This document shows, piece after piece, positions 21,928 through 27,950 of a stretch of DNA of 64,000 nucleotides. The stretch is from Negativicutes bacterium (lineage in GTDB: Bacteria; Bacillota; Negativicutes; UBA1444), in assembly GCA_963665275.2 (NCBI GenBank), contig CAXXIN010000007.1, positions 608,001 through 672,000 of the forward strand, in the 5' to 3' direction. The stretch's first letter is position 1. Each line of letters opens with the position of its first letter. The notes beneath the pieces were generated by a model, which did not search any database, was not told where the DNA came from, and saw only the letters and a list, made by a program, of their open reading frames with translations. The position numbers and the translations under genes are program-made.

Positions 21928-22095
21928 ATTTTTCATCCAGAGTTGGCGGAGGGACGGGCCCGATGATGCTACGGCAACCACTCGCATTATGCGAAACGGT
22001 GCCAATTCCTGCAGGGGCATGACCCCGGCAGATGAAAGAACGGCTTGTCTTAAACGCAATGCCTCTTCCATCTGTGAAGAGGTATTTATTTTTTT
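21928..22095 (+). ncRNA. SAM-I (S-box) riboswitch with terminator
   Basis: TTCATCCAGAG..GGCGGAGGGACGGGCCCGATGA..GGCAACC..GGTGCCAATTCCTGCAG..GATGAA core; CCTCTTC/GAAGAGG hairpin plus T tract at 22062-22095; upstream TTGACA-18-TAGCAT; precedes metNIQ. Confidence 0.96.
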
Positions 22096-23814: not shown

Positions 23815-24654
23815 ATGCATATTGCCCGAAAAACTCTAGCCCTCATTTTGTGCCTCATCTTCATTCTTGCGCTTGCGGCGGCGGGATGCGGTGGAAAAAC
23901 CGAACCAGCCAAACCCGCAGCAGCTCCGGCAGCGGATAAAGTTCTTAAGGTTGGCGTAACCCCTGGCCCACACGCGCAGATTATGGAAGTCGTTAAAAAG
24001 GTTGCCGAAAAAGATGGACTCAAGATCCAGATCGTCGAATTCAGCGACTATATCCAGCCAAACGTCGCTCTCAACCAAGGAGACATTGATATTAACAGCT
24101 TTCAGCACCTTCCCTACCTCGAAAACATGGTGAAAGACCGCAAATATGAACTCGTCATGCTGGCTAAAACCTTCACCTTCCCGATGGGGATATACTCCAA
24201 AAAAATCAAAACTCTAAAAGACCTCAAGGATGGCGCTACCATCGCCATTCCCAACGATCCAACCAATGGCGGCAGGGCTCTGGCTCTGTTCGAAAAAGCC
24301 GGGCTGATCAAACTCAAACCCGGACTGGGTCATAAAGCGTCGGTCGTCGACATCGTGGAGAACTCCAGGAAATTCAAGATTCGCGAACTCGAGGCCGCTC
24401 AAATCCCGAGAACTCTCGAAGACATGGAACTCGCCGCGATCAATACAAACTATGCCATGTCCGCCGGCCTGGTTCCCGCCAAGGATGCATTGGTTCTGGA
24501 GGACGCCAACTCTCCTTATGCCAATATTTTAGCAGTCCGCACCAAAGACAAAGAGAATCCTCTCTACCAAAAATTCGTCAAGGCTTATCAATCTGACGAA
24601 GTCAAAAAATTCGTCACTGAACAATTCCAAGGTTCTGTAATCGTTGCCTGGTAA
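23815..24654 (+). CDS. metQ: Methionine ABC transporter lipoprotein (MetQ/NlpA)
   Basis: Lipobox AAGC; FSDYIQPN.AL, NSFQH.PYL, IPNDPTNGGRAL. Confidence 0.95.
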   Translation: MHIARKTLALILCLIFILALAAAGCGGKTEPAKPAAAPAADKVLKVGVTPGPHAQIMEVVKKVAEKDGLKIQIVEFSDYIQPNVALNQGDIDINSFQHLPYLENMVKDRKYELVMLAKTFTFPMGIYSKKIKTLKDLKDGATIAIPNDPTNGGRALALFEKAGLIKLKPGLGHKASVVDIVENSRKFKIRELEAAQIPRTLEDMELAAINTNYAMSAGLVPAKDALVLEDANSPYANILAVRTKDKENPLYQKFVKAYQSDEVKKFVTEQFQGSVIVAW

Positions 24655-24678
24655 TTTGTAAATATTTTGCGCAGAATA

Positions 24679-24707
24679 TTGCAAAAATTTAAATTCTGAT
24701 CTATAAT
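24679..24707 (+). promoter_or_regulatory. sigma-A promoter of an orphan transcript
   Basis: TTGCAA-17 bp-TATAAT; near-palindrome AATATTTTGCGCAGAATATT (24661-24680) touches the -35. Confidence 0.7.
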
Positions 24708-24713
24708 GTAACC

Positions 24714-24975
24714 AAAGGGTAGATGGGGATGAAGAAAAGAAACGGTAGTTCCCAGACAAGGCTACCTGAAGACCGGTTAATTCCGGAATGGGGTGATTCC
24801 ATTGAAAGACCCAATGGAAAACGAACCACAACAGCATATCGGCATAGGACGGTGCATCAAGGCACTGTAAGGTACAAAACGAATTTGTACCAGCGGGGTT
24901 CAGTGGTTGAGACCCTGACTCTGCAATAGAAAGTTTGAAATGGACGGTTTCTTAAGGAAACCGTCCATTTCTATT
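24714..24975 (+). ncRNA. Candidate structured non-coding RNA (or small-protein gene 24723/24729-24929)
   Basis: Lies between its own promoter and a strong terminator; at least six hairpins plus possible pseudoknot pairings; family not identified. Confidence 0.55.
24937..24975. terminator. Strong (likely bidirectional) terminator
   Basis: Perfect 15-bp inverted repeat GAAATGGACGGTTTC/GAAACCGTCCATTTC. Confidence 0.85.
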
Positions 24976-25011
24976 CTCATCATATTCAATTCAACTATCC
25001 GGTGTGCCTTC

Positions 25012-25431
25012 TCAGCTTCCTTTATGAGGTTCTGCTCCGCAACGCCGGCAATACCCATAAATCTCGAACTGATGATTCACGGGGGTAAAACCGCATTCGG
25101 TCATAAAAGTCGATACTTCCTCCCCAATAGGACACCACGGAACTTCAGCCGTCTCACCGCAAGTCATGCATATCAGGTGATGGTGATGGACATTTCCAGC
25201 CAGCTCAAAGCGGGCTTTCCCATCAGCCAAAAGCGTTCGCCGTACCCTCCCCTGCTGAGAGTAACATTGTAGATTACGATATACCGTACCCAGGCTGACG
25301 TTGGGATATTTCTCCCTCACACGTCCGTATACTTCTTCCGCCGTCATCAATTTAGGATTGAACTGCAAAGCGTCGAGGATCGCCTGCTTTTGAAGCGTCA
25401 GGCGGGTTCCCGGTATTTTTTCATTTGTCAC
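25012..25431 (-). CDS. zur: Fur-family regulator (probable Zur)
   Basis: GTG 25431 after AGGAGG; SLGTVYRNL, HHHHLICMTCG, GYCRRC; last gene of a metal ABC operon. Confidence 0.8.
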   Translation of the reverse strand: MTNEKIPGTRLTLQKQAILDALQFNPKLMTAEEVYGRVREKYPNVSLGTVYRNLQCYSQQGRVRRTLLADGKARFELAGNVHHHHLICMTCGETAEVPWCPIGEEVSTFMTECGFTPVNHQFEIYGYCRRCGAEPHKGS

Positions 25432-25432
25432 G

Positions 25433-26257
25433 TCACTGACTGCCTCCTTTCGGCCGCAGCCCAAAACGCAGCAGAGACACCACCGCATACGTGCCGACGG
25501 CAATCAGGACAATGGAGGCTCCAGAAGCCAAACGGACCGTGTAGGAAAACCAAAGACCCGTGAGACAGAATGCGATACCCAACAATACCGACAAGCCCAT
25601 GATTTTTTTCATGTCATAGGAAAACTGCTTTGCAATGGCAGGTGGAGCAGTCAGTAGAGCAATCACCAATATGATCCCCACGACCCTGATCAACATCACG
25701 ACGGTTATCGCCACCAACACAAACAGCAAATTCTCAAGGAACCGGACTGGCACGCCAACCACACTGGCAAACTCTTCATCAAAAATATAAGCCTTAAACA
25801 CTTGGAAGAAAGCGGCCACTGCCGCCACAACCAAAATATCCAATCCCAAAATCAGCCGCAAATCAGATTTGGACACCGATAGGATATTCCCAAAGAGATA
25901 AGAAGCCATATCCGGTGGATATCCTGGTGTCAGCGCGATAAAGATGACGCCGAGAGCCATGCCCAACGACCAAAACATCCCAATCAACAGGTCTGAATCC
26001 GTCATCGCCTTGCGTTTCACCGCCGCCACCGAGATTGCCGCGAGAATCGATACGCCAAGAGCAGTTAGAATCGGTTCCACCTTTAAAAAGTACCCCAGCC
26101 CGATGCCACCGAAAGCGGTATGGGCGATTCCGCCGCTCATCATCACCAGTTTTTTTTCCATGATATAAGTTCCAATGACTCCACAGGCGACACTGGCTAA
26201 AACCGCCGCCAGGATGGCATTCTGCAGGAAATTGTATTTTAATATTGCTTCCATCAC
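25433..26257 (-). CDS. znuB: Metal (Zn/Mn) ABC transporter permease
   Basis: GIAHTAFGG, YLFGNIL, FDEEFA, VGIILVIALL..P. Confidence 0.88.
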   Translation of the reverse strand: MMEAILKYNFLQNAILAAVLASVACGVIGTYIMEKKLVMMSGGIAHTAFGGIGLGYFLKVEPILTALGVSILAAISVAAVKRKAMTDSDLLIGMFWSLGMALGVIFIALTPGYPPDMASYLFGNILSVSKSDLRLILGLDILVVAAVAAFFQVFKAYIFDEEFASVVGVPVRFLENLLFVLVAITVVMLIRVVGIILVIALLTAPPAIAKQFSYDMKKIMGLSVLLGIAFCLTGLWFSYTVRLASGASIVLIAVGTYAVVSLLRFGLRPKGGSQ

Positions 26258-27027
26258 AGAGTTCCTCCCTCATCATCATGGCCCTGCAACACTCTATGCG
26301 GTACACCGTGTGCGATGAGATCCACCGGGCAACCGTAAACTTTTTCGACCAAACCGGCTTCCAGCTCGGTCCGGCCGTGATAAAACAGTTGCTGGTTCAG
26401 GCAGGCAATCTTATCAATATTGGACGAAACCGCACTCAAATCATGAGTCACTATCAGAATCGTCATCTCTTTGTTCAATTCCTTGAGAATCTCGTAGATA
26501 CGGGTTTTGGAAGCCGAATCTACGCTGGCGGTTGGTTCGTCCAGAATGAGGATGCGTGGTTCCACTGCCAACGCCCTGGCGATCAATACACGCTGTAATT
26601 GGCCCCCTGAAAGCTGGCCGATCTGACGATGTTTGAGATCAGCGATCTCCAGCCTTGCCAGCAGCGATTCGACCAAGATCCTATCTTTGTCGGCGAATCG
26701 GACAAACCAGGGACTGCGTCCCGCCAACCGGCCCATCAGCACCACTTCTTCCACGCTGATAGGAAAGCGTCGGTCAAAGCGTGAAAATTGCGGAACGTAT
26801 CCAATGTGGCGGCGCCCTTTTGCGCCGCTCTGCCCGAAAATCCGGATTGTACCCGCCTGCGGTTCTACCAGCCCCAGAATGGCCTTCAACAAAGTCGTCT
26901 TTCCCCCGCCGTTAGGGCCGATGATCCCCAGAAATTCGTTTTCCTGCACGTTCAGACTGATCTTTGACAGCGCGCAGTCCTCACCGTAAAATACGCTTAG
27001 ATTGTTAATTTCAAGCGCTAAACTCAT
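26254..27027 (-). CDS. znuC: Metal ABC transporter ATP-binding protein
   Basis: GPNGGGKT, IGYVPQ, LSGGQLQR, LDEPT, CLN...YHG. Confidence 0.9.
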   Translation of the reverse strand: MSLALEINNLSVFYGEDCALSKISLNVQENEFLGIIGPNGGGKTTLLKAILGLVEPQAGTIRIFGQSGAKGRRHIGYVPQFSRFDRRFPISVEEVVLMGRLAGRSPWFVRFADKDRILVESLLARLEIADLKHRQIGQLSGGQLQRVLIARALAVEPRILILDEPTASVDSASKTRIYEILKELNKEMTILIVTHDLSAVSSNIDKIACLNQQLFYHGRTELEAGLVEKVYGCPVDLIAHGVPHRVLQGHDDEGGTL

Positions 27028-27045
27028 TTCATACCCGTCCGTCTC

Positions 27046-27930
27046 TTACTTCAATCCTGCGGCAAAGGATCGCGCCATCCGCTTGATATTATCAATGTAG
27101 TCCGTCGCCATCGGCGATACTTTTTCAGCGCTGCCGCCCAGCTCTTCGGCAAAAGTCCGCGACTGGCGGCCATCGATGTCTTCCTGATAGAAAATAATCT
27201 TGATTCCCTTCGCGCGGGCCATATCGATGATATCCCGTATCCGACGGGGGTCGGCTTCTTTTCCCTCTTCTTCCAGCGCCACCATCGTCAGGTTGTAATC
27301 ATCGGCAAAATACCCGAACGCCGGATGGTATACGATGAAAGACCGCTTTGACATGCCCTTGAGCAGCTCCATCAGCTCGCGGTCCACTGCTTCAATCTGT
27401 CCGGTATACCGTTGTGCATTGGTCTCATAAGTTCCGCGATTGGCGGGGTCCAGAACTGACAATTCCCTTGCGGTCAATTGCACCATTTCTACCGCACGCT
27501 TCGGCGATAGCCAGATATGGGGATCCTGATCATCCGGCGCAAAATAACGGGGCGCATACTTTTTCGCAACTTCATTCTGAACGTCGATGATTTTCAGGTT
27601 ACGATTCATTTCCGCCGCTTTGGGCAAAATATTGCCTCGTTCGGGAGGCAGTCCCAACGCTAAATATAAACTGGCGTTGCCGATTTTCTCCATGTCCTGC
27701 GGCGGTGGCGAATACGTCTCATGATTGGCGCCTGGCGGCAAAACCGTCACGATGTTTACCAGATCACCCGCCACTTCCCTTACAAATGTCGCTTGCGGTG
27801 CGACAGTCACGACGACCGTCGGCTTCGTACGGGCTTCCGGCAAAGCCGGCTTGCTTGTTGTGAAAACAGACACAGCAATAAACAAAATCGCAATAGTTCC
27901 GATAATAATCCATTGAGTTTTAAATCGCAT
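27046..27930 (-). CDS. znuA: Zinc ABC transporter substrate-binding protein
   Basis: N-terminal anchor; HETYSP, DPHIWLSP and YHPAFGYF metal-ligand motifs. Confidence 0.88.
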   Translation of the reverse strand: MRFKTQWIIIGTIAILFIAVSVFTTSKPALPEARTKPTVVVTVAPQATFVREVAGDLVNIVTVLPPGANHETYSPPPQDMEKIGNASLYLALGLPPERGNILPKAAEMNRNLKIIDVQNEVAKKYAPRYFAPDDQDPHIWLSPKRAVEMVQLTARELSVLDPANRGTYETNAQRYTGQIEAVDRELMELLKGMSKRSFIVYHPAFGYFADDYNLTMVALEEEGKEADPRRIRDIIDMARAKGIKIIFYQEDIDGRQSRTFAEELGGSAEKVSPMATDYIDNIKRMARSFAAGLK

Positions 27931-27950
27931 CCTTGACCCCTCCACTTGAC

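Follow-up and report, generated by a model that had tools for sequence, protein, structure and literature searches.

The stretch of DNA analysed here, 64,000 nucleotides (nt) of contig CAXXIN010000007.1 of a Negativicutes bacterium (referred to as the window; positions below are those of the window), contains a transcription unit downstream of metQ, the last gene of a methionine transporter operon. This unit is a real and conserved small RNA (sRNA) gene, independently promoted and terminated, of an undescribed family. Comparison of related sequences gives good support for the 3' helices of the RNA and for a helix that sequesters a Shine-Dalgarno (SD)-like box. The product is probably a structured regulatory sRNA, possibly with a dual function.

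The unit has a conserved promoter and an intrinsic terminator of its own, as in an independent bacterial sRNA gene. Both had been proposed in a preliminary description of the sequence, and both were confirmed. The promoter, TTGCAA and TATAAT with a 17-nt spacer, showed 10 of 12 matches to the sigma-70 type. Its -35 box is identical in all ten genus sequences, and the -10 box is TATAAT in nine of them. Transcription seems to start at about 24711-24715. In all paralogs and relatives inspected, a separate sigma-70-type promoter ends about 7 nt upstream of the 5' end; a terminator of their own is present in most of them. The 15-bp terminator of the window unit contributes approximately -25 kcal/mol to the predicted fold (-93 versus -68.2), and compensatory changes are observed in four of its pairs among the homologs. 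It should be mentioned that the simple terminator scan did not list the 24937-24971 hairpin among its sites. The hairpin is a near-perfect inverted repeat, which matches itself on the minus strand and could also end the convergent zur-like gene. The best explanation of these features is an RNA product of approximately 230-260 nt, ending near 24975. The list of open reading frames (ORFs) contains no plus-strand gene downstream of the unit before the convergent gene. As the preliminary description had argued from the same absence, the unit is not a cis riboswitch in the window.

Six metatranscriptome runs contain about one tenth of the sampled words of a query covering 24300-25100 (shares 0.09-0.10). 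In all four RNA-library runs examined (four studies, five records), contigs of 158-208 nt with 95-99% identity were found within 24729-24945; these contigs do not reveal strand, ends or level, and may stem from carried-over DNA. In one of the runs there is also a 167-nt contig, at a depth of 120, from a relative with a differing middle part. The regions 24300-24728 and 24946-25100 lie outside the contig cover, and this lack of cover is not counted as evidence. The contigs are taken to show that RNA libraries contain the unit or its close relatives, and nothing more.

Fold and covariation of the RNA

The plus strand of the unit folds better than chance. For 24712-24935, a segment that excludes the terminator, the z-score of the predicted fold was -3.35, and none of 200 shuffles was as stable. 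The minus strand was no better than its shuffles (z-score -0.67). This difference means that the observation is real, strand-specific and beyond chance.

RNAalifold applied to the genus sequences yielded the helices P1, P1a, P2, P3, P4, P5 and P6, together with the terminator (Table 1). Two covariance models were used: R1 was made from ten genus sequences, and R2 includes in addition diverged copies, among them those of Pelosinus. Long blocks of the RNA are invariant in the genus alignment. Most helices are invariant within the genus and are hence uninformative there; double changes were found in seven pairs, located in P6 and the terminator. In the R2 alignment of 30 family sequences, 87.1% of the cells are standard pairs, versus 35-50% when the partners were slid by 1-3 columns. 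Both-side changes occur in 35 of 52 pairs, versus 11-23 for the slid partners. Five pairing measures were reached by none of 500 shuffles, a control that overstates the significance because the sequences are related to one another. Alignment A6, from which the pairs were counted, had been fitted to the structure of the model and favours that structure. Since the alignment is model-fitted and the sequences are related, the pair counts are supportive and do not constitute a formal test. With this qualification, the compensatory changes expected of a structured non-coding RNA exceed those of the controls.

The RNA consists of a variable 5' domain (P1, P1a and P2) and a conserved core. In the core, the SD-like box is held in P3 against GAAYCAC, followed by a linker, a variable P4, an invariant P5 (GUACAAN/NUUGUAC) and a covarying P6. 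The 5' domain, 24717-24767, with P1, P1a and a purine-rich loop, is specific to the window-like type, designated A. Indels in the purine-rich loop are not multiples of 3 in the genus alignment. The GUACAA/UUGUAC part of P5 is almost invariant in the whole family, and the seventh, closing pair is C-G in 16 sequences, A-U in 8 and U-A in 5. In P6, all 11 pairs change on both sides, and 86-88% of the cells are paired.

Several hairpins of the preliminary description are present in both the sequence and the consensus fold: CCGG/CCGG (24773-86), TTCCATTG/CAATGGAA (24797-819), GGTGC/GCACT (P4, around 24849-68) and GGTACAAA/TTTGTACC (24871-91). Others were replaced. The proposed GGTAG/CTACC hairpin was not retained: GGTAG (24744-48) is absent or altered in about half of the homologs, and the partner of CTACC is the invariant GGGTAG at 24717-22. 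In place of the proposed GGGGTT/GACCCT hairpin, the 3' hairpin is the two-part stem of P6. A suggested closing helix, GTAGA/TCTGC, is unconserved. The suggested AACCAC-GTGGTT pseudoknot is lost in five of ten genus sequences, which have GCGGTT, and is absent in distant relatives; AACCAC pairs with GUGAUU of the conserved box in place of the proposed partner.

Table 1. Positions of the sRNA unit, its parts and the associated genes
Feature	Position	Strand	Remarks
metQ	23815..24654	+	methionine ABC transporter lipoprotein; named from translation
Sigma-70-type promoter	24679..24707	+	TTGCAA 24679-84, TATAAT 24702-07; promoter scan
RNA body, P1 to P6	24711..24926	+	R1 217 bits, R2 203 bits (G000:C7:632711-632926)
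P1	24717-22 with 24762-67	+	GGGUAG with CUACCU; invariant 10/10
P1a, inside P1	24725-28 with 24749-52	+	GGGG with UCCC; only G-C/G-U variation
P2	24773..24786	+	CCGG/CCGG; weakly conserved, 72% of cells paired across family
SD-like box	24790..24799	+	GGGGUGAUUC; G-rich
P3	24793..24829	+	closing and inner helices
P3 closing helix	24793-99 with 24823-29	+	GUGAUUC with GAACCAC; one A.C mismatch in window genome
P3 inner helix	24797-804 with 24812-19	+	UUCCAUUG with CAAUGGAA
22-codon small ORF	24802..24870	+	UUG start, UAA stop (24868-70, just before P5); reads LKDPMENEPQQHIGIGRCIKAL
J3/4 linker	24830..24848	+	fixed length, variable sequence in genus; in relatives AU-rich, ..AAUU..AUAUAUA..
P4	24849..24868	+	ACGGUGC with GCACUGU; both-side changes in 6/7 pairs, 90% of cells paired
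P5	24871..24891	+	GGUACAAA with UUUGUACC; 98.3% of cells paired
P6	24894..24923	+	CGGGGU 24894-99/ACUCUG 24918-23; GUGGU 24903-07/ACCCU 24912-16
Intrinsic terminator	24937..24977	+	stem 24937-51 with 24956-71, then U-rich tail
Fur/Zur-like gene	25012-25503	-	convergent; named from translation
56-residue ORF	L207:1690-1857; matching places in L205, L204		MARERISDLF...; two hydrophobic helices

The Shine-Dalgarno-like box and the short reading frame

The hallmark of the family is the SD-like box, which is invariant in all A-type sequences. In relatives, it reads GGGGUG(A/G)UUC or GGAGGUGAU. In the long-form members, found in Pelosinus and a sister genus, the box occurs twice per unit. The 3' end of the 16S rRNA in the window genome is ...GGAUCACCUCCUUU, and pairing worked out by hand indicates that GGGGUGAUUC can pair with this end over 10 nt, with two wobbles. 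Three copies of the 16S 3' end motif were found (L209, L210 and L211, on contigs C7, C8 and C14 of the window genome), which means that this genome has at least three rRNA operons. The first of them, with 16S and 23S genes and two tRNAs, is located on the contig of the window, about 134 kb upstream.

The closing and inner helices of P3 partly overlap, and full formation of both is impossible. In a MAFFT alignment, which was not fitted to the structure, the closing helix has seven of seven pairs in all 13 rows of the C, D and E types. The position of the A.C mismatch in the window is occupied by G-C in these types and by A-U in L053 and the long forms. Locus L050 has matching one-base insertions on both strands of P3. 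An alternative GGU/ACC pairing from RNAalifold (24792-94 with 24825-27) is paired in most rows and never covaries. The 7-bp GUGRUUC/GAAYCAC helix is preferred over this pairing; the two are not cleanly separated.

The preliminary description had allowed for a small protein, encoded by an ORF of 66-68 codons that fills the unit (24723-24929). This ORF has stops or frameshifts in all nine genus homologs, and is an accident of the window genome. What stands of the caveat is a different frame of 22 codons behind the SD-like box, which is kept open in the A-type relatives. In none of the 12 A-type sequences (11 of them unique) is this frame interrupted, and it ends at the same place with TAA, TGA or TAG. 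Of the other two frames, one has stops in all 11 unique sequences and the other in 10 of them. When the variable columns were permuted, the 22-codon frame stayed open in only 82 of 20,000 permutations. The BLOSUM score of the differing codons was 0.62, versus -0.47 and -0.79 in the other frames, and none of 500 null permutations reached it.

These features might mean that the unit is mainly a small mRNA for a 22-residue peptide, with the hairpins as untranslated regions (UTRs) that tune stability or translation. The start region fits this idea: GGGGUGAU, 4 nt and UUG form a near-ideal ribosome-binding site for the 16S 3' end of this genome. The long forms also point in this direction. The frames behind their boxes are open over 26-43 codons, and only 52 of 20,000 permutations keep them open. 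Nine of the ten long-form units scanned have frames of 26-33 codons behind UUG or GUG starts, and the tenth (L203) has 43 codons; indels of +9 nt in L204 and +3 nt in L032 are in frame. On the other hand, conservation of the peptide is poor except where its coding segments form RNA helices, and the conserved residues coincide with these helices. In addition, P4 to P6 of the C type are conserved and covarying outside any ORF. As a whole, the small mRNA is considered an unlikely reading.

The preferred reading is a structured regulatory sRNA, in which P3 would be the working part, hiding or exposing the SD-like box. Upon exposure of the box, ribosomes might translate the 22-codon frame. The RNA would then act as a dual-function sRNA, or as a translation-coupled switch in which P4 and P5 are melted. 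Alternatively, the exposed box might bind the 16S 3' end or another partner. Because the 3' domain is conserved where no reading frame covers it, P4 to P6 seem to have a function of their own at the RNA level. Translation of the 22-codon frame is possible, and unproven. If the frame is translated, the act of translation may be more important than the peptide.

Besides the model-fitted alignment and the invariance of most helices within the genus, several points weigh against this reading, in particular against its dual-function part and, in part, against the small mRNA as well. The variable columns of the A type are distributed as 9, 9 and 11 over codon positions 1, 2 and 3, with no third-position excess. 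In the long forms, they are distributed as 23, 20 and 17, and the synonymous share is equal in the three frames (40/203, 41/210 and 43/209), which indicates no synonymous bias. For the long forms, the BLOSUM signal does not reach significance (102 of 500). A canonical start is lacking at the corresponding site in the B, C and E types. Within the Pelosinus clade, the box and CACAA are separated by 32, 33, 34 or 36 nt (partly counted by hand), and some sequences have in-frame stops; this means that no single frame is conserved there. In L053, only three codons follow the UUG. Pfam and NCBIfam gave no match for the 22-, 38- and 68-residue peptides. In other words, an ORF with a ribosome-binding site and a start kept open is found in the A type and not in the B, C and E types, and a coding-type substitution pattern is absent, apart from a mild amino-acid signal in the A type. 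Furthermore, the mechanism above is an inference. Finally, the stretch between metQ and the unit showed no terminator, a point taken up below with the locus.

Distribution, long forms and relation to known RNAs

The unit is present in nine of the 11 other genomes of the genus, with 78-81% identity in BLASTN. The two genomes in which it is lacking are highly fragmented, with a completeness of 84% and 90%. The window genome contains a second, diverged copy at C16:209791-209983 (L029:1501-1693, minus strand), which scores 57 bits with R1 and 126 bits with R2. This paralog has its own extended -10 promoter and terminator, and lies between an ORF resembling an energy-coupling factor (ECF) transporter and a flavodoxin/ferredoxin-like ORF. 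Its frame is open through the whole RNA, without a good start codon. With only two copies in the genome, a repeat or mobile element was ruled out.

R1 also yielded weaker copies in Pelosinus. R2 matched 33 of the 151 genomes sampled from the class. By family, the positive genomes were 10 of 12 in f1, 14 of 15 in f7, 2 of 2 in f9, 1 of 4 in f11, 1 of 2 in f14, 2 of 8 in f25 and 2 of 7 in f27; none was found among the 22 genomes of f13, the 21 of f17, the 10 of f4 and the 9 of f24. The class matches in G099, G046 and G074 are weak (22-30 bits). Several genomes of the Pelosinus family carry two or more copies. The sole match in 150 other genomes of the phylum (G219, 24 bits) is false; it lies inside a LacI-type coding region.

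A motif scan of 185,579 species genomes, one for each species, gave 29 stretches, of which 17 were confirmed by R2. All 17 carry Negativicutes-type or unassigned labels, and five are Pelosinus; the labels include Pelosinus baikalensis, P. fermentans, 'uncultured Veillonellaceae bacterium', 'Negativicutes bacterium UBA1444' and 'Sporomusaceae bacterium'. The other 12 stretches (Flavobacteriales, Myxococcales, Pseudarthrobacter and others) have no model match and were regarded as chance. A pattern scan of metagenomes gave at least 119 stretches, with four true by R2 among the 80 scored; these counts are no measure of abundance. In the samples, therefore, the family is confined to part of the Negativicutes: the genus of the window, which consists of uncultured metagenome-assembled genomes, Pelosinus and some neighbouring families.

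Partial forms were also observed. A 24-nt core, GGGGTGATTCCATTGAAAGAG..., is located near position 1505 in L013 (G034) and L015 (G060), both of family f23, and is followed by frames of 10-11 codons. No full-length R2 match was reported in these two loci; the cores may be partial or decayed modules. L032:16-220 (G119, f25) keeps the 5' half, with the box, P3 and the CCACCACAA strand carrying a 3-nt insertion. In place of P4 to P6, it has a second SD-like box (AGAGGUGA) and a second short frame.

The long forms extend the module in two ways. In L206:1500-2200 (minus strand, G116), four tandem modules of about 150 nt are placed behind one promoter. Each module has two GGGGUGAUUCCAUUG-like boxes and an open frame of 29-33 codons, and the array ends in a single P4-P5 and a distant terminator. 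At three loci in Pelosinus, an SD sequence and the AUG of a 56-residue ORF for a protein with two membrane helices come after the long form, and no terminator lies between. This ORF matches no Pfam family and has no homolog in the window genome. Together with the stand-alone units, this arrangement means that one module is found as a leader at some loci and as a gene by itself at others. A regulated gene directly downstream, as expected of a leader or riboswitch, is found only in these Pelosinus long forms and not in the window.

The leader arrangement raises the question of whether the window unit is a cis-regulatory leader, of the riboswitch or attenuator type, which has lost its downstream gene and is functionless in this genome. 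Apart from the Pelosinus loci, the AGGAGG directly after P6 in L053 might be taken as a trace of such an origin. However, the stand-alone form is kept in ten species of the genus with about 80% identity and long invariant blocks, it appears in RNA libraries, and the 56-residue ORF has no counterpart in the window genome. A decayed leader is thus very improbable.

The preliminary description had stated that the RNA lacks the hallmarks of 6S, SRP, tmRNA, RNase P and T-box RNAs, and the Rfam searches agree with this: no family matched. At gathering thresholds, Rfam 15 found in the 64-kb window an S-adenosylmethionine (SAM) riboswitch alone, and nothing at the unit. A permissive scan of 24600-25020 (E<=10) gave chance matches only; these did not exceed 18 bits and mostly fell on the terminator. 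The paralog, the units of Pelosinus and the tandem array likewise matched no family at gathering thresholds, and permissive scans (E<=10 or E<=5) gave only chance matches of at most 20 bits, for the most part on terminators.

The loose likeness to the raiA-motif RNA that had been suggested in the preliminary description was not supported: RF03072 gives nothing at the unit at E<=10. The sole match of this model in the genome at E<=10 is at C19:152097-152304 (L037:1501-1708, minus strand), with 198 bits against a gathering threshold of 101.3 bits; in other words, a bona fide raiA motif RNA exists elsewhere in this genome. Conversely, the raiA locus scores no more than 7 bits with R1 when the filters are off, and this score comes from a stray hairpin alone; the two sequences are unalike. 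The raiA RNA is similar in general character: it is an orphan of about 200 nt in Firmicutes, is structured, has a promoter and a terminator of its own, and its function is likewise unresolved. It differs in that no match is found in either direction, that it forms a gene apart from the unit in the window genome and that the distribution of the window RNA is far narrower. A diverged raiA RNA, for which the suggested likeness, the length and the occurrence in Firmicutes were the only arguments, is refuted by the sequence and structure models and has practically no probability.

Other known RNAs share single features with the unit. The CsrB/RsmZ type comprises RNAs that titrate proteins or ribosomes through repeated purine-rich motifs. 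The window family likewise repeats SD-like GGA- or GGGG-containing motifs in one RNA, in some genomes in tandem; however, the GGA motifs of the window RNA are few (about 4-6, counted by eye) and lie mostly outside hairpin loops. A reading of the RNA as a CsrA sponge is not supported. SreA and SreB of Listeria are reportedly riboswitch RNAs that also occur as terminated stand-alone transcripts. In a similar manner, the present module is found as a 5' leader in Pelosinus and as a stand-alone terminated unit in the window, whereas no Rfam riboswitch family matches the window RNA. SR1/SR1P of B. subtilis is reportedly (PMC5013986) an independent sRNA of about 200 nt with a short ORF, a ribosome-binding site and structure conserved at the RNA level. 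It has no sequence relation to the window RNA, whose peptide is shorter (22 residues) and poorly conserved, and whose translation and base-pairing are predicted only. In the literature searched, no description of such an RNA was found for Pelosinus, Sporomusa or Negativicutes. The searched passages of two Breaker-lab surveys (PMC6429828, PMC8632094) name Negativicutes only for other motifs; their supplementary tables might list the RNA under another name.

Structured RNAs of about 200 nt that covary and belong to no family are rare, and are often a source of new biology. The raiA and OLE RNAs and the riboswitch classes are examples. For the Negativicutes, which are diderm and spore-forming, hardly any regulatory RNAs have been described; the present family adds one to this group, and it has a box resembling a ribosome-binding site concealed in a conserved core helix. 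Its stand-alone, tandem and leader occurrence makes it a tractable system for the movement of a module between cis and trans. The system also bears on whether very short frames in sRNAs serve the peptide or the act of translation. Pelosinus is cultivable and carries both forms, P. fermentans having a C-type copy that stands alone as well as a leader of the long form, so that these questions are directly testable.

Genomic context

The RNA body starts 57 nt past the end of metQ, which is the last gene of the metN-metI-metQ operon. This operon is preceded by the SAM (S-box) riboswitch mentioned above (21930-22038, 81.7 bits in Rfam 15). In all ten A-type loci, and in relatives from three other families, a metQ homolog occupies an upstream position on the same strand. 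These relatives include L053 (f11) and L051 (f27). In the long-form loci L204, L205, L207 and L052, it is located 1.1-1.3 kb upstream on the same strand; there, metQ has its own terminator, and an opposite-strand gene lies between metQ and the RNA. The B- and C-type copies have their own promoters and are located far from any metQ. The link to metQ may be ancestral synteny or functional.

The terminator scan found no terminator-like site between the metQ stop (24654) and the unit, and part of the RNA could therefore also arise as the 3' end of the metNIQ transcript. Taken further, the unit might be no gene of its own: it might be a cis-acting 3' end of metNIQ, serving as a stability or processing element or as an sRNA released from the 3'UTR. 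The synteny with metQ is consistent with this. A similar position is known for RsaC of Staphylococcus aureus: this sRNA reportedly lies downstream of mntABC, after the last gene of an ATP-binding cassette (ABC) transporter operon. RsaC is reported (PMC6765141) to have a conserved 3' domain and, in some members, a 5' part with a variable number of repeats, comparable to L206. The sequences are unrelated, the window RNA has its own promoter, and a link to metal or methionine is only a candidate for the window RNA. The conserved promoter of the unit, the B- and C-type copies remote from metQ, and the terminator and intervening gene in Pelosinus all argue against a mere operon end, which is improbable.

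When the long forms, the arrays and this locus are combined, a more far-reaching model can be drawn, in which the family would be a new class of modular 'SD-box' riboregulators. The box, nearly a perfect complement of the 16S rRNA 3' end, would be held by the anti-SD-like GAAYCAC, and opening of P3 would let it capture 30S subunits. The module might be used in cis, as the leader of a small membrane protein, in trans, as a stand-alone RNA, and in arrays of up to four. A ribosome translating a short throw-away frame might remodel P4 and P5, or the RNA might titrate ribosomes or another SD-binding factor. The ancestral position after metNIQ might provide a wiring to methionine or SAM status. This model is speculative, and we consider it quite unlikely as a whole.

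On the other side, the arrangement of the zur gene and the RNA is kept in all ten genus loci, as examined by tblastn with zur. Behind the Fur/Zur-like regulator, znuB-, znuC- and znuA-like genes, named from their translations, follow on the minus strand, so that the whole group covers 25012-27945.

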